From a virus (lineage: Duplodnaviria; Heunggongvirae; Uroviricota; Caudoviricetes): 4,846 bases of DNA. Positions 1 through 4,846 of this stretch are shown piece after piece. The notes under the pieces are model-generated. The model had not been told where the DNA came from. It ran no database searches and worked only from the letters and a program-made list of their open reading frames with translations. The stretch lies in the IMG/VR virus record IMGVR_UViG_2713896779_000029; one strand, given 5' to 3'. The first letter of the stretch is position 1, and each line of letters starts with the position of its first letter. A program made the translations under genes and the position numbers.

Positions 1-1
1 G

Positions 2-82
2 AGGAAAGACCTCTGCGAGGTACGAATCCGAACCGGCCAGACGGAGGTCGCTGTCTTCGTAGACTACGAATCTGAGAAGTAA
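2..82 (+). CDS. Possible 3' end of an upstream CDS (5' truncated by window edge), product unknown
   Basis: Frame 2 is open from the window edge to TAA at 80-82 and translates to a protein-like tail (...TGQTEVAVFVDYESEK). The other two + frames are Arg-rich or stop earlier. A stable stem-loop follows 8 nt downstream. No family recognised. Confidence 0.25.
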   Translation, partial: RKDLCEVRIRTGQTEVAVFVDYESEK

Positions 83-89
83 GAGACCA

Positions 90-111
90 GGCGAGGGAGA
101 AATCCCTCGCC
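90..111 (+). other. Perfect 9-bp inverted repeat with GAAA loop (RNA stem-loop or palindromic protein-binding site)
   Basis: ggcgaggga (90-98), gaaa (99-102), tccctcgcc (103-111); the arms are exact reverse complements. No U-tract follows, so it is not a canonical intrinsic terminator. Confidence 0.4.
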
Positions 112-199
112 ACCTCTGATGTGTCAGGCATCCTCAACGCACCCGCATTTTATATGCTGCAATGCAAGTGTTCATGTTAATTTCTTGAAGAGGACGATA

Positions 200-547
200 A
201 TGAAAAAAGTATTAATCGCAGCCCTTTTTTCCTGCGTGTCTTTTGGCGTTTTTGCACAACAGGGAGGTTTTCTGGGGTCTGAAGCAGAGCGTTCAACAAC
301 AGTAGTGCAGGCAAAAGAACAGAAGGACGAGGCATGGGTTATCCTTGAAGGGCACATCGTTAAAAAATTGGGTGATGATCGTTATGAGTTTCGCGACAGT
401 AGCGGAACCATTGTCACGGATATCGATGAAAGTGTATGGGCCGGGCAGAATGTGTCTCCGGAAGATAAGGTAATAATCGAGGGTGAACTTGATAAAGACC
501 TGAACAGTGTTGAACTGGATGTAAAAACGCTGAAATTATTAAAGTAA
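200..547 (+). CDS. YgiW/YdeI-family (BOF, bacterial OB-fold, DUF388-like) secreted protein
   Basis: ATG at 200 preceded by AGGA-containing RBS (gaggacgataATG); stop TAA 545-547. N-terminal signal peptide MKKVLIAALFSCVSFGVFA followed by QQGGF. Conserved family pattern W-V-x-L-x-G-x-I-V, DD-x-Y-x-F-x-D-x-SG-x-I, DID, GE-x-DKD-x-NSVE-x-DV matches my recollection of E. coli YgiW. Confidence 0.9.
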   Translation: MKKVLIAALFSCVSFGVFAQQGGFLGSEAERSTTVVQAKEQKDEAWVILEGHIVKKLGDDRYEFRDSSGTIVTDIDESVWAGQNVSPEDKVIIEGELDKDLNSVELDVKTLKLLK

Positions 548-562
548 CCGGTTCTGGTTATC

Positions 563-589
563 CCCGTCTTACTGACGGGTTTTCTGTTT
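563..589 (+). terminator. Rho-independent terminator downstream of the BOF gene
   Basis: Stem cccgtc (563-568) and gacggg (574-579), loop ttact, followed by T-rich tail ttttctgttt (580-589), 16 nt after the stop codon. Confidence 0.6.
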
Positions 590-667
590 GTACATTCCGG
601 CGTATTGCCTTACAATTCGCGCCGTCAGCCTGAACAACTGGCACCTGCTGCGTCACCGGAGAAGCCG

Positions 668-900
668 ATGGCGCAACATATAAAATCCCACAATTCCGAA
701 GCCGCCCCGACTACTAAGCAGGGGCGGCGTTTCCGTGTGCCTCAGTATGGCTGGTTTCATTATCTGTTCTGTTCGACCGATGAGGCCGATATGCTTCAAC
801 AGGCGTATTGGCGTCGCGGTGTCCGTGTGGAGCGGAGCCTGAACGCTGATCGTCTGACCTGGACCGTTTCTGTATATCTTCCTGTTCGTGCACATCTGCC
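668..900 (+). CDS. Hypothetical phage protein, 3' end lost in the N gap (or N-terminal part of the downstream DUF968-like gene)
   Basis: ATG at 668 with GGAG 6-9 nt upstream; open frame MAQHIKSHNSEAAPTTKQGRRFRVPQYGWFHY... runs into the N run at 901. The same frame continuing after the gap to 1174 is Trp/Cys/Arg-rich and looks like an out-of-frame read of the next gene. No family recognised. Confidence 0.45.
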
Positions 901-950
901 NNNNNNNNNNNNNNNNNNNNNNNNNNNNNNNNNNNNNNNNNNNNNNNNNN
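901..950. other. Assembly gap / masked segment (50 N)
   Basis: Run of exactly 50 N; true length and content unknown. Confidence 1.
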
Positions 951-2019: not shown

Positions 2020-2476
2020 ATGCCTATAGATTTGGTTTTACCTTACCCGCCAACGGTGAACACCTACTGGCGTCGTCGTGGCAGTACATATTTTATCTCG
2101 GAGGAGGGAAAGCGTTATCGCCGGGCAGTGGCGCTTATTGTTCGCCAGCAGCGGCTGAAATTAAGCCTGTCCGGAAGGCTGGCGATAAANNNNNNNNNNN
2201 NNNNNNNNNNNNNNNNNNNNNNNNNNNNNNNNNNNNNNNAAATTAAGCCTGTCCGGAAGGCTGGCGATAAAGGTGATTGCAGAGCCACCGGATAAGCGCC
2301 GTCGCGACCTGGACAATATTCTGAAAGCACCGCTGGATGCGCTGACGCATGCGGGAGTGCTCATTGATGACGAGCAGTTTGATGAAATCAATATTGTACG
2401 TGGTCAGCCAGTATCTGGTGGACGACTGGGTGTGAAGATTTACCAAATAACGCATGAAGGACAGGCCCAAAAATGA
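2020..2476 (+). CDS. rusA: RusA-family Holliday junction resolvase (crossover junction endodeoxyribonuclease), interrupted by an N gap
   Basis: ATG 2020 preceded by aagagg RBS. N-terminal LPYPPTVNTYWRR and C-terminal PDKRRRDLDNILKAPLDALTHAGVLIDDEQ...SGGRLGVKI match RusA hallmarks (LPWPPS, RRRDLDN with catalytic Asp, DALT, DD, GGRL). Removing the N run plus one copy of the flanking 32-bp repeat joins the two halves in frame to give about 124 aa. Confidence 0.85.
2158..2271. repeat. Perfect 32-bp direct repeat (2158-2189 and 2240-2271) flanking a 50-N gap; probable unmerged contig-end overlap
   Basis: aaattaagcctgtccggaaggctggcgataaa occurs identically on both sides of N run 2190-2239. Confidence 0.8.
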
Positions 2477-3294
2477 AACTGGAAGATTTACCGAAGTACT
2501 ATTCACCAAAATCCCCCGGCCTGACAGATGCCTCTGCCTCGACGTCAAAAGATGCGCTGAGTATCACTGATGTGATGGCAGCGCAGGGCATGACACAGAA
2601 TCGGGCTGAGATGGGGTTTTCTGCGTTCCTTGGGAAAATGGGCATTAGTATGAATGACAGAGAGCGGGCAACAGAATTGCTGACAGAATATGCACTCAGT
2701 CGGTGTGATTGCGTGGCGGCGTTAAGAAAACTCCCGGCAGAAATAAAACCGGCAGTGATGCGCATTATGGCTTCGTATGCGTTTGAAGATTATGCCCGTA
2801 GCGCGGCGAGCAAAAAACAGTGCCCCTGCTGTCACGGAAAAAAATTTATTGAAAGCGAGGTTTTTACAAACAAGATCCAGTATCCGGATGGTAAGCCGCC
2901 AGTATGGGCAAAGTGCACAAAAGGCGTGTATCCGTCTTACTGGGAGGAATGGAAAAAAGTCAGGGAGGTGGTAAAAGTTGCCTGTCCGGAGTGTGGCGGA
3001 AAGGGGGAGGTTTCCACAGCCTGTAAAGATTGTCGTGGGCGCGGTGTTGCCATTCATCGTGAAGAGTCGGAAAAACAGGGTGTGCCGGTTTTCAGAAACT
3101 GTCAGCGTTGTGGTGGGCGTGGCTATGAAAGATTACCTTCAACGGAGGCATTTAATGCCATATGTAATGTAACCGATGCCATATCTCTTGATACATGGAA
3201 AAAAACAGTTAAACGTTTTTACGATACGCTGGTGGTGCAGTTTGATATTGAAGAAGCATGGGCAGAACAACAACTGAAAAAGGTGACCAGATAG
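2473..3294 (+). CDS. Q: Late-gene antiterminator Q (lambda Q family) with expanded zinc-binding region
   Basis: ATG 2473 overlaps the rusA stop (ATGA at 2473-2476); stop TAG 3292-3294. Blocks shared with lambda Q as I recall it: SPKSP, TDVMAA-GM, F/YxDYxRSAA, CxDCxGxG, CxRCxGxGYxRxP, and the C-terminal WxxTVKxxYDxLVVQ...VTR. It is 273 aa against 207 aa for lambda Q. Confidence 0.9.
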   Translation: MKLEDLPKYYSPKSPGLTDASASTSKDALSITDVMAAQGMTQNRAEMGFSAFLGKMGISMNDRERATELLTEYALSRCDCVAALRKLPAEIKPAVMRIMASYAFEDYARSAASKKQCPCCHGKKFIESEVFTNKIQYPDGKPPVWAKCTKGVYPSYWEEWKKVREVVKVACPECGGKGEVSTACKDCRGRGVAIHREESEKQGVPVFRNCQRCGGRGYERLPSTEAFNAICNVTDAISLDTWKKTVKRFYDTLVVQFDIEEAWAEQQLKKVTR

Positions 3295-3503: not shown

Positions 3504-3553
3504 NNNNNNNNNNNNNNNNNNNNNNNNNNNNNNNNNNNNNNNNNNNNNNNNNN
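3504..3553. other. Assembly gap / masked segment (50 N)
   Basis: Run of exactly 50 N inside the tR'-to-methyltransferase intergenic region. Confidence 1.
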
Positions 3554-3693: not shown

Positions 3694-4752
3694 ATGCTTA
3701 ATACTGTAAAAATATCCAGTTATGAGTTAATCAACGCCGACTGCCTGGAATTTATGCGGTCGTTACCCGAAAATTCTGTTGACCTGATAGTCACGGACCC
3801 GCCGTACTTCAAAGTGAAACCCGCGGACTGGGATAACCAGTGGGTGGGTGATGAAGATTACCTGAAGTGGCTGGACCAGTGCCTTGCGCAGTTCTGGCGG
3901 GTGCTGAAACCAGCCGGAAGTCTTTACCTGTTCTGTGGCCATCGCCTGGCATCTGACACCGAAATCATGATGCGTGAGCGGTTTAACGTACTGAACCATA
4001 TCATCTGGGCAAAGCCGTCCGGACGCTGGAACGGGTGTAACAAGGAAAGCCTGCGGGCGTATTTTCCGGCCACAGAGCGCATTCTGTTCGCGGAACATTA
4101 TCAGGGGCCGTATCGCCCGAAAGATGATGGCTGTGAGGCGAAGGGCAGGGCACTGAAACAGCATGTGATGGCCCCGCTGATTGCTTACTTTCGTGATGCG
4201 CGCGCTGCCCTGGGGATAACGGCAAAACAGATTGCAGATGTCACAGGAAAGAAAAACATGGTGTCGCACTGGTTCAGTGCCAGTCAGTGGCAGCTGCCGA
4301 ACGAAAGCGATTATCTGAAATTACAGGCCCTGTTTGCCCGGGTGGCAGAAGAGAAGCATCAGCGCGGTGAACTGGAATGGCCACACCACCAGCTGGTCAG
4401 TACATACAGTGAACTGAGCCGACAATATGTCAGCCTGCAGGAAGAGTATAAAACCCTGCGGCGTTATTTTTCCGTATCGGCTGCGGTTCCTTATACGGAT
4501 GTGTGGACGCACAAACCCGTACAGTACTATCCCGGGAAACATCCGTGCGAAAAACCGGCAGAAATGCTGCGGCAGATAATCAGTGCGAGCAGTCGTCCGG
4601 GTGACCTGATTGCAGATTTTTTCATGGGGTCAGGTTCAACGGTAAAAGCGGCGCTGTCACTGGGACGTCGGGCGATTGGTGTTGAGCTGGAGACCGGACG
4701 TTTTGAGCAGACAGTCAGGGAAGTTCAGGATTTTATCAGTCAGAACGGATGA
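3694..4752 (+). CDS. DNA methyltransferase, N6-adenine/N4-cytosine type, beta class (motif IV before motif I); orphan, no adjacent restriction endonuclease
   Basis: ATG 3694, stop TGA 4750-4752. N-terminal ELINADCLEFMRSLPENSVDLIVTDPPYF carries catalytic motif IV (DPPY). C-terminal HPCEKPAEMLRQII...GDLIADFFMGSGSTVKAALSLGRRAIGVELE carries motif X plus motif I (FxGxGS/T SAM-binding). About 250 aa between them serves as the target-recognition region. Confidence 0.9.
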   Translation: MLNTVKISSYELINADCLEFMRSLPENSVDLIVTDPPYFKVKPADWDNQWVGDEDYLKWLDQCLAQFWRVLKPAGSLYLFCGHRLASDTEIMMRERFNVLNHIIWAKPSGRWNGCNKESLRAYFPATERILFAEHYQGPYRPKDDGCEAKGRALKQHVMAPLIAYFRDARAALGITAKQIADVTGKKNMVSHWFSASQWQLPNESDYLKLQALFARVAEEKHQRGELEWPHHQLVSTYSELSRQYVSLQEEYKTLRRYFSVSAAVPYTDVWTHKPVQYYPGKHPCEKPAEMLRQIISASSRPGDLIADFFMGSGSTVKAALSLGRRAIGVELETGRFEQTVREVQDFISQNG

Positions 4753-4792: not shown

Positions 4793-4846
4793 GGCCCTTT
4801 AGCTCAGTGGTGAGAGCGAGCGACTCATAATCGCCAGGTCGCTGGT
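4793..4846 (+). tRNA. tRNA with CAU anticodon, most like tRNA-Ile2 (ileX/ileZ type); 3' part truncated by the window edge
   Basis: ggcccttTAGCTCAGTGGTGAGAGCgagcgaCTCATAAtcgccaggtcgctggt: acceptor stem, D-arm (AGCTCAGTGG-GAGAGC) and anticodon loop CTCATAA with CAT at 4826-4828. Near-identical over the available part to my recollection of E. coli ileX. Elongator tRNA-Met cannot be fully excluded without the complete gene. Confidence 0.8.

Follow-up and report, generated by a model that had tools for sequence, protein, structure and literature searches.

A YgiW/YdeI-family protein as cargo of a hok/sok cassette in lambdoid prophages of Shiga-toxigenic Escherichia coli

The stretch of DNA analyzed here (the window; 4,846 nucleotides) originates from a lambdoid, non-Stx prophage of E. 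coli O121:H19. The window opens with the 3' end of a hok toxin gene (positions 2-82). Downstream on the same plus strand follow a GC-rich hairpin (90-113), a fold-back inhibition (fbi) element (132-144), a short spacer (150-199), a gene of the BOF (YgiW/YdeI-like) family encoding 115 amino acids (200-547) and an intrinsic terminator (563-589). Positions 1-592 are the window part of a mobile hok/sok-BOF cassette, which forms a single homology block shared with 933W. The whole cassette covers ~877 bp (L001 8716-9592), the first ~284 bp of which lie upstream of the window. A 90-aa open reading frame further downstream was considered as a homologue of K-12 Rem and rejected (BLASTP E = 14).

A preliminary description had proposed an open reading frame at 119-589 with a ribosome-binding site, a signal peptide and a terminator. 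These features are present, but the true start lies at 200. Position 119 is merely the first ATG of the longest open reading frame (142 aa), is not preceded by a Shine-Dalgarno sequence and, as a start, would leave the signal peptide behind an N-terminal extension. An in-frame stop is also found in the common alleles (933W, Sp11), and because this stop immediately precedes the ATG equivalent to 200, the latter is the true start. A Shine-Dalgarno sequence (AGAGGA, 189-194) is located 5 nt upstream of this ATG. The N-terminus (MKKVLIAALFSCVSFGVFA followed by QQ) shows the n/h/c organization typical of Sec signal peptides, with MKK, a 15-residue hydrophobic core and a predicted cleavage between VFA and QQ, so that residues 1-19 (nt 200-256) would be removed. 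After cleavage, the protein would consist of an acidic OB-fold domain of ~10.5 kDa with a pI of 4.5.

The proposed membership in the YgiW/YdeI (BOF) family is borne out by matches to the Pfam profile PF04076 (E 1.6e-30, 105.7 bits against a cutoff of 25.8, profile positions 10-102 of 103), to NCBIfam NF033674 (E 2.2e-37, 127.6 bits against a cutoff of 35) and to the sequence of the YgiW structure 1NNX (E 2.5e-25). This assignment is not new. RefSeq already names the product of the window gene, and the GenBank record of 933W notes the similarity of its protein L0136 to YgiW/YdeI. The window protein is 47% identical to K-12 YgiW over the mature domain and 36% identical to YdeI. It falls below the cutoffs that would indicate orthology to chromosomal ygiW or ydeI, narrowly for the YgiW subfamily TIGR00156 (103.1 against 108.15) and by a wide margin for the YdeI equivalog NF007471 (66.4 against 179), and the alignment shows that it lacks an N-terminal linker of 16 residues present in YgiW and YdeI. 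Transferring phenotypes from YgiW or YdeI is uncertain. The predicted AlphaFold2 model has five strands with a core pLDDT of 70-80, the mean of only 62 going with a shallow alignment. Its best match in the PDB is 1NNX (E 2.4e-9, TM 0.78 normalised to the target), followed by other OB folds, and as modelled the protein is a five-stranded OB-fold beta-barrel like YgiW. Shared with YgiW and Salmonella VisP are the BOF/OB fold, a Sec signal peptide, here predicted, and a QGGF motif. YgiW is a chromosomal core gene beside qseBC, whereas the phage gene resides in a hok cassette. The donor lineage was sought by a word-indexed search, which retrieved only E. coli prophage alleles, and by a full phmmer search, which found nothing closer outside the E. 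coli prophage clade than representatives with ~50-58% identity. Purifying selection acts on the BOF gene, with dN/dS of 0.21-0.24 between alleles. Judging by its sequence, the gene at 200-547 likely encodes a functional, Sec-exported OB-fold protein of the BOF (YgiW/YdeI/SipA) family, which would reside in the periplasm.

An intact hok/sok system lies directly upstream, comprising the toxin gene, the sok/hok leader and a predicted pairing of the mRNA ends. The toxin gene begins outside of the window at L001 8927, and its product matches the Pfam family HOK_GEF (PF01848; E 2.5e-12) and is a Hok/Gef family protein in RefSeq. The Rfam sok/hok leader RF01794 is found at L001 8758-8932, just upstream of the window, with 114.4 bits (gathering score 59). 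Positions 83-149 are the 3' UTR of the hok mRNA. The stable hairpin within this UTR (GGCGAGGGAGAAATCCCTCGCC, 90-113; -19.7 kcal/mol) is found in both local and whole-mRNA folds and is kept in 933W and Qin with compensatory changes. By analogy with R1 hok and published hok biology, it is likely the 3' end of the processed, active hok mRNA. The fbi element (CCTCAACGCACCC, 132-144) is complementary to the 5' end of the mRNA (GGGUGCUUGAGG, tac), with a duplex energy of -21.5 kcal/mol. Pairing of the 5' and 3' ends appears in the minimum free energy fold of L001 8758-9160 (z = -6.9).

In the canonical hok mechanism, fbi is expected near the 3' end of the mRNA. Cargo-free hok/sok systems (K-12 Qin hokD, R1 parB and 60 of 80 sampled phage loci) share the leader, toxin frame, 3' hairpin and fbi with the window at 90-97% conservation. 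K-12 hokD and all hok-only loci are homologous to the cassette up to window position ~149, just past fbi. At this point, hok-only loci carry AACCCGCTTCGGCGGGTTTTTT right after fbi and the terminator CCCGCTTCGGCGGG-T6 within ~10 nt. The former is missing from loci with BOF, and neither the window nor any other BOF-containing locus has a terminator directly after fbi. The next terminator is displaced ~415 bp by the spacer, the BOF gene and a hairpin, which together separate fbi from the position of the hok terminator.

The terminator closing the cassette (563-589; CCCGTCTTACTGACGGG followed by TTTTCTGTTT) consists of the hairpin CCCGTC-TTACT-GACGGG (-11.0 kcal/mol) and a T-tail. The scanner match is not significant in itself, because about one match per kb is also found in shuffled sequences (0.8 expected). 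A chance match is ruled out by conservation rather than by scan statistics, with 27/27 positions identical between alleles and only 39-65% identity in the neighboring non-coding DNA, or 39-50% in the DNA adjoining the terminator. Homology to 933W ends right after the terminator. The T-tail and the flank beyond it can be aligned to the hok terminator in two loci lacking BOF (L067, L128). The terminator thus occupies the position of the hok terminator and therefore also serves hok. Rfam matches to Hrs1 on the terminator (19.8 bits against a gathering score of 56.4), CsrC and ceN48 were far below gathering scores and were discarded as noise.

The spacer between hok and BOF (150-199) is the least conserved segment of the cassette. 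The two alleles are 65% identical in the spacer compared to 87% in the coding sequence, and conservation is essentially restricted to the Shine-Dalgarno and start region. The scanner found no intrinsic terminator on the plus strand of the spacer in either allele. Consensus scans agree with the earlier remark that 113-199 contains no convincing sigma-70 promoter: none with at least 9/12 consensus positions was found on the plus strand between hok and the ATG in either allele. This negative result is not strong, because the same scans also miss the hok and sok promoters. The sole plus-strand promoter match is at 589-616, downstream of the terminator. Reading by eye recovered a weak candidate at 131-158 (TCCTCA-16-TATGCT, 7/12). 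PmrA-type direct repeats were rejected on visual inspection, with GTTAAT and CTTGAA being only 2 nt apart instead of 5 and not kept in the 933W allele.

The BOF gene is tightly linked to hok. In all 46 assessable IMG/VR viral loci, hok lies directly upstream at a fixed spacing, and a BOF gene without hok was never seen among these. The linked block is found in two contexts, the nin region and the right end of 933W. The reverse does not hold, as shown by the hok loci without BOF (60 of the 80 sampled) and by K-12 Qin, where hokD has no BOF gene beside it. Of 38 viral loci with hok in the DUF968/rusA context, 20 lack BOF and 18 have it, another tally of this context giving 20 of each. L067 and L128 represent clean empty sites, in which hok and the downstream flank match those of BOF-carrying loci. 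Among 5426 complete E. coli genomes, 549 (~10%) carry the BOF gene, mostly STEC, and 4699 match window positions 1-900, which include the 3' end of hok. The BOF gene has the lowest GC (43.4%) and GC3 (40.5%) of the region, compared to 48-55% and 46-67%, respectively, in eleven neighboring genes. The direction of the event, insertion rather than deletion, we infer from GC content only.

A homologue of the window gene is L0136 of the Stx2 phage 933W, which is equivalent to H0152 of VT2-Sakai (Sp5), Z1498 of EDL933 and UniProt A0A4P8BAV1. Both proteins share 82% amino acid identity and are encoded in the same hok/sok-BOF-terminator cassette, with an identical terminator. SignalP classes the L0136/Z1498 signal peptide as SPI, and the protein was seen by mass spectrometry. 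The 933W cassette (hokW-L0136) is shared with the window as one sharp-ended block in a different genomic context, being located at the right end of the prophage, where it neighbors a tail-fibre gene and attR and runs on the opposite strand, whereas the window gene is in the nin region. L0136 also falls into another allele class, at 87% nucleotide identity, and none of the 549 genomes has an intermediate.

We suggest that the BOF gene encodes an exported cargo protein of the hok/sok cassette and is transcribed from the hok promoter, a reading that we consider the best explanation overall with a probability of about 0.65. The absence of a terminator between hok and BOF implies that hok transcripts should read through BOF, and the two genes are probably co-transcribed, judging by the lack of signals between them. 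Transcripts from the hok promoter would run through BOF and stop at 563-589, and the whole block from promoter to terminator travels as a single unit between phage contexts. A constitutive hok promoter would provide low constitutive expression of BOF in the lysogen, and after induction, early phage transcription across the nin region would contribute as well. In Sp5 lysogens, the one studied case, hokW mRNA is reported as constitutive and already present before induction (PMC8621323). Between hok and BOF, transcripts may be ended by Rho or cut by RNA processing, which would count against co-transcription. The 430-nt extension would also alter the canonical arrangement of hok mRNA with fbi near the 3' end, which likewise speaks against co-transcription. 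No RNA data on the BOF gene were found in the literature. Queries by locus tag (ECs2197 and others) and papers on expression in Stx lysogens yielded nothing, and the only expression evidence is a secretome, in which Z1498 was detected by mass spectrometry in supernatants of EDL933 without inducer (PMC12962677). Spontaneous induction could account for this detection, because the same secretome also held Stx2B and 933W structural proteins (PMC12962677).

Once exported, the mature protein would most likely act like its chromosomal relatives. It would bind to cationic peptides and/or proteins of the outer membrane while in the periplasm, and would raise tolerance to antimicrobial peptides, peroxide or metals. 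The proposed mechanism is taken from the functions of YdeI and SipA. YgiW, YdeI and SipA are located in the periplasm, where their partners are OmpF, OmpD and OmpA, respectively, to which they bind, and they confer tolerance to H2O2, Cd and antimicrobial peptides (PMC6370654). The family members YdeI (OmdA; E. coli and Salmonella) and SipA (Vibrio cholerae) act together with OmpD, OmpF or OmpA, and the tolerance they confer extends to polymyxin, LL-37, H2O2 and Cd (PMC6370654). By homology, a function in tolerance of envelope stress, antimicrobial peptides or oxidants is most likely.

An alternative with some merit, though clearly less probable, is that the BOF gene is a classic self-contained moron. 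A weak or regulator-dependent promoter of its own at ~113-199, in part within the hok 3' UTR, together with its own terminator, would then support expression in the repressed prophage independent of hok, and the adjacency to hok would be merely historical. The classic lambdoid morons, such as lambda bor and lom and the HK97/HK022 morons of Juhala and Hendrix, are patchy among relatives, have an odd base composition, are directly followed by a terminator and encode envelope products suiting lysogenic conversion. The preliminary description had claimed the classic moron layout, and parts of it stand. The gene is located in the nin-equivalent region, between replication genes and DUF968-RusA-Q. 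Comparing local GC content with the neighboring genes was suggested and sets BOF apart, the loci and empty sites without BOF show it to be accessory and not a conserved core component, and the conserved downstream terminator is real. Patchy presence, atypical composition, downstream terminator and a putative envelope product all match morons, as do its own Shine-Dalgarno sequence and predicted signal peptide. Identity between alleles falls at window position ~150, being 92-97% in hok and 87% in BOF, which suggests that hok and BOF can recombine separately. The -10-like TATGCT of the window also aligns by eye with CATACT in 933W. Chromosomal genes of the ydeI/sipA type are driven by stress-responsive two-component systems, which makes a non-consensus promoter plausible, but no comparable control is visible for the window gene. 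What does not stand is the free-standing unit. The BOF gene is always nested in, and moves with, an autonomous hok/sok and has no recognizable promoter of its own, since even 9/12 consensus is not reached in either allele. The putative promoter region overlaps the poorly conserved 50-nt spacer, the terminator is at a position shared with hok, and with the hok terminator missing upstream, hok transcripts enter BOF regardless. In lambdoid prophages of Shiga-toxigenic E. coli, the BOF gene is best read as accessory cargo and not as an independent moron.

Expression mainly in the lytic cycle is an unlikely explanation. Antiterminated early transcription of the nin region, or read-through from pL in 933W-type prophages, would here produce BOF for a purpose such as conditioning the envelope before lysis. 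The orientation of BOF along the delayed-early region between replication genes and Q is in agreement, as is the presence of other 933W proteins in the secretome containing Z1498. HokW protein was seen only after induction and helps phage release (PMC8621323). However, the conserved terminator after BOF would block early transcription that is not antiterminated and is typical of insulated cargo. Half of the comparable phages do without BOF, its positions in different phages are unrelated, and the homologues are host stress-tolerance proteins.

A similarly unlikely proposal is that hok/sok-BOF is a three-component operon, with BOF translated as part of a hok mRNA extended at its 3' end and linked in function to the toxin, either through a buffering or tuning of Hok action at the envelope or through a change in the 3' end processing by which hok mRNA is activated. 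As a rival to the cargo reading, a partnership with Hok is the least probable of all. Here, Hok toxicity would be modulated by the BOF protein, which might buffer leaky Hok or tune lysis assisted by Hok, or the inserted frame would retime 3' processing of the hok mRNA as part of a three-part module. Strict linkage with fixed spacing in every copy seen, the position inside the hok transcription unit between fbi and the terminator, and the action of both products at the envelope are in favor. The published hokW-sokW deletion lies directly upstream of H0152 and, in the part of the report accessible, comes with no polarity control, hence its phenotype may not be due to hok alone (PMC8621323). Against such a partnership, most hok loci work without BOF, including K-12 and R1, support from co-variation or interaction is absent, and the differing divergence of hok and BOF suggests independent histories.

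Recognizing the BOF gene as cargo is less a discovery than a clarification of an existing annotation. What is annotated as prophage "YgiW" is the cargo of a mobile hok/sok cassette, and the hok promoter probably governs its expression in lysogens. Deleting hokW-sokW from Stx phages may consequently have polar effects on the BOF gene. In a genome-wide association study of STEC, "ygiW_2" and a mokC-like gene were together associated with HUS (PMC11950266). Such matches in association or pan-genome studies most likely represent one physical prophage cassette and not two independent risk genes. A three-component operon, if true, would explain the joint association of ygiW_2 and the mokC-like gene. 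Should the BOF protein indeed make cells more tolerant of antimicrobial peptides or oxidants, it would add to the lysogenic-conversion factors that STEC prophages carry.

The BOF gene (window 200-547, + strand) is, judged from its sequence context, cargo of a hok/sok cassette. The window and its upstream flank share with phage 933W a single sharp-ended block of homology. It begins some 40 bp ahead of the hok mRNA 5' end and stops with the final base of the terminator at 563-589, and in 933W it holds hokW, sokW and the BOF homologue L0136. The cassette lies at the far right prophage end in 933W, beside a tail-fibre gene and attR and on the opposite strand, whereas it occupies the nin region in the window. 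A protein closely related to BOF is encoded on 47 IMG/VR viral contigs, and hok stands directly ahead of its gene at constant spacing in all 46 with upstream sequence. About three quarters of these IMG/VR loci show the nin context and the rest the 933W-type context. Deposited phage genomes include 45 records with the BOF gene, every one of them an Stx phage, and a DNA query across hok and BOF has a MokW, HokW or RelF feature annotated under the same match in the records listed. The constant linkage and the shared block speak against the preliminary description of the gene as a self-contained unit. What moves as a unit is the whole hok/sok-BOF cassette, not the BOF gene by itself, and the same probably applies to transcription. 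The literature searched yielded no description of a BOF gene nested in a type I toxin-antitoxin locus, and this nesting is the only non-obvious element of the finding.

The 3' end of the Hok/Gef toxin gene lies at window 2-82 (profile match), and just upstream of the window the Rfam sok/hok-leader model scores 114 bits (gathering threshold 59). In the predicted fold of the hok mRNA (8758-9160 of L001, the matching RM8352 prophage locus, in which window position 1 is 9001), the 5' end GGGUGCUUGAGG pairs with CCUCAACGCACCC at window 132-144 (whole-fold z = -6.9; duplex -21.5 kcal/mol). This modelled pairing corresponds to the tac-fbi fold-back, which holds full-length hok mRNA inert. Bases 83-149, the preliminary start at 119 included, are therefore hok 3' UTR. 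In the local MFE fold, CCUCU at 112-118, just 3' of the hok hairpin, pairs with AGAGG of the BOF Shine-Dalgarno sequence (189-194), and both are kept in the 933W allele. The pairing could translationally mask BOF on the long transcript, or is possibly fortuitous.

The proposed intrinsic terminator downstream of BOF (563-589) is real, with the hairpin CCCGTC-TTACT-GACGGG followed by TTTTCTGTTT (-11.0 kcal/mol). Shuffled sequence yields one terminator-like site per kilobase, and a scan match alone is not the argument. The case for function is that the terminator is identical at 27/27 positions between allele classes, beside 15-18 nt from the BOF stop codon to the hairpin that are only 39-50% identical. 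Hok loci without BOF carry a canonical terminator, AACCCGCTTCGGCGGGTTTTTT, within about 10 nt after the fold-back inhibition element (fbi). That hairpin is missing in every BOF-containing locus, where fbi is followed by a 50-nt spacer and the BOF ORF. The sole terminator there is the one after BOF, at a position matching the hok terminator of empty-site loci. This arrangement puts the BOF gene probably within the hok transcription unit, and a polymerase from the hok promoter would meet no visible stop signal before 563-589. A consensus scan finds no promoter-like or terminator-like match in the hok-BOF spacer of either allele. The scanner also misses the hok and sok promoters, so BOF may have a weak promoter of its own; the best candidate by eye is TCCTCA-16-TATGCT at 131-158 (7/12 match). 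Within the block, identity between alleles is lowest in the spacer (65%), compared to hok (92%), the CDS (87%) and the terminator (100%). On the minus strand, the spacer contains an antisense promoter-like TGAACA-16-TAAAAT (174-147) aimed at the hok 3' UTR, probably by chance since the 933W allele reads TAAAGC in place of its -10. On the plus strand, the first kilobase has a single sigma-70-like match, TGTACA-16-TACAAT (589-616), which begins at the terminator's last bases, upstream of a 90-aa ORF, DUF968, rusA and Q. Its TACAAT is kept in the BOF-less viral loci L067 and L128 (TTTACAAT), and it may be a promoter of the downstream nin/Q genes.

The BOF gene is accessory rather than core. In a sample of the 80 viral loci whose Hok matched best, the BOF gene is present in 20 and absent from another 20 that share its DUF968/rusA neighbourhood, and the remaining 40 represent other contexts or short flanks. 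L067 and L128 match the left side of the window through hok and fbi, and the right side from the terminator T-tail and TACAAT motif into the downstream gene, leaving a clean indel of ~415 bp. The K-12 Qin prophage shares the left breakpoint at window ~149. The BOF gene has the lowest GC among twelve regional genes (43.4%, GC3 40.5%; others 48-55%). Accessory status, foreign composition and a bounding terminator fit the earlier view of a moron in spirit, but self-containment is not supported, with the hok terminator missing and the gene probably within the hok unit. Of 5426 complete E. coli genomes, 549 carry the gene, with 660 places in total and no more than four in any one genome; these are overwhelmingly O157, O26, O111, O145, O121 and O103 strains. 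Window 1-900, which includes the hok 3' end, is matched by 4699 complete genomes. Only 11 of the 549 carry the window allele; the rest fall into a second class, about 87% identical to it in nucleotides and 82% in amino acids, and no allele lies between the two. A dN/dS of 0.21-0.24 between alleles indicates purifying selection on the protein.

The longest frame over the gene spans 119-547. The preliminary ORF and terminator at 119-589 hold, but not the start, as the biologically sensible one is ATG 200. This codon follows AGAGGA at 189-194, the product begins with MKKVLIAALFSCVSFGVFA followed by QQGG, by sequence a typical Sec signal peptide, and commoner alleles (933W, Sakai Sp11) have an in-frame stop codon immediately before the equivalent ATG. 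Matches of the 115-aa product to Pfam BOF PF04076 (E 1.6e-30), NCBIfam NF033674 (2.2e-37) and the E. coli YgiW crystal structure 1NNX (E 2.5e-25) bear out the YgiW/YdeI-family assignment, which is already in databases. An AlphaFold model of moderate confidence only (mean pLDDT 62, core 70-80, shallow alignment) has the expected five strands, with 1NNX as top PDB match and then other OB folds. The protein shares 47% identity with E. coli YgiW and 36% with YdeI, lacks their 16-residue N-terminal linker, and scores just below the YgiW subfamily cutoff and far below the YdeI equivalog cutoff; it is therefore an orthologue of neither. Among 1554 cluster representatives of the family (E <= 1e-3), none outside the E. 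coli prophage clade exceeds about 50-58% identity, hence no donor can be named. Distant homologues (37-48% identity) in Pseudomonas phage Y10 and an Acinetobacter "phage" record are possibly independent captures by other phages; some other low-identity phage-collection matches are bacterial contigs filed as phage. YgiW, YdeI/OmdA and V. cholerae SipA are periplasmic, with OmpF, OmpD and OmpA as respective partners; SipA binds cationic peptides, mutants of characterised members tolerate H2O2, cadmium and polymyxin poorly, and YgiW and SipA show complementation across species (PMC6370654). Given these homologues and an acidic mature protein (pI about 4.5), which fits binding of cationic ligands, the role is by analogy most likely envelope-stress or antimicrobial-peptide tolerance of the lysogen.

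Eight complete E. coli genomes, most of them O121:H19, have a chromosomal prophage that matches window bases 1-900 at 100%. Along the RM8352 locus (NZ_CP028110.1), RelBE-like genes are followed by a YdaS/YdaT-type immunity region, replication genes, an IS66 insertion and a DUF551 gene; next come hok, the BOF gene, the 90-aa ORF, DUF968, RusA and the Q antiterminator, and after these a DNA methylase, three tRNAs, an esterase of the nanS-p type and a holin. The BOF gene therefore sits, as proposed, in the part of a lambdoid prophage equivalent to the nin region. The region lacks stx. The prophage is probably defective because of the IS66 element in its early region (L001 4763-7357) and an IS3 element close to the holin. 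The genome has BOF in 2 places, the second copy being the common allele. Three runs of 50 N in the window (901-950, 2190-2239, 3504-3553) appear to be scaffold gaps rather than biology, and offset coordinates past 900 from L001. The first stands in for 34 real bases; the second is flanked by a ~32-nt duplicate (2158-2189 = 2240-2271), which makes rusA look split into two ORFs. In the complete genome rusA is one intact 375-nt gene (L001 11004-11378). The Q antiterminator (2473-3294, PF03589) has two DnaJ-type CXXCXGXG zinc-finger repeats (PF00684, below cutoff) and is followed by the DNA methylase (3694-4752). At 4797-4846 comes the beginning of a tRNA (tRNA-Ile in L001), and the window end cuts off the rest, explaining why ARAGORN reports none.

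The literature searched contained no transcript map or mutant of the BOF gene. In an MG1655 Sp5 lysogen with the 933W-type cassette, hokW mRNA is already there before induction and then stable, and HokW protein is seen only once sokW RNA is gone (PMC8621323). A 2026 EDL933 secretome without inducer detected Z1498 (type I signal peptide, location unknown; PMC12962677). UniRef uses its UniProt entry, A0A4P8BAV1, to represent exactly the 933W L0136 sequence, so the BOF homologue is made. Stx2B and 933W structural proteins occurred in the same samples (PMC12962677), and spontaneous induction may thus explain the detection. The hokW-sokW::km deletion published for Sp5 (primers YO-351/352; 2370-3046 of the VT2-Sakai locus L052) stops just past the hokW stop codon, with the BOF homologue H0152 next downstream in what is apparently the same transcription unit. 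Its lysis and phage-release phenotype could be partly due to altered H0152 expression, and the sections of PMC8621323 consulted mention no polarity control.

The cassette might also bear on disease associations. An Irish case-control GWAS linked HUS to ygiW_2 and group_5720 occurring together, the latter described as mokC-like (adjusted OR about 5.5), and treated the pair as possibly interacting genes; ydfU_1 (DUF968) and ybcQ_1 (Q), of the same gene neighbourhood, were also hits (PMC11950266). Given the hok-BOF anatomy, ygiW_2 and group_5720 are very probably two halves of a single hok(mok)-BOF prophage cassette (window 1-592). The additional hits from this neighbourhood suggest that the HUS signal stems from linkage to particular prophages. 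If the pair is one cassette, ygiW_2 and group_5720 would be prophage markers rather than independent determinants.
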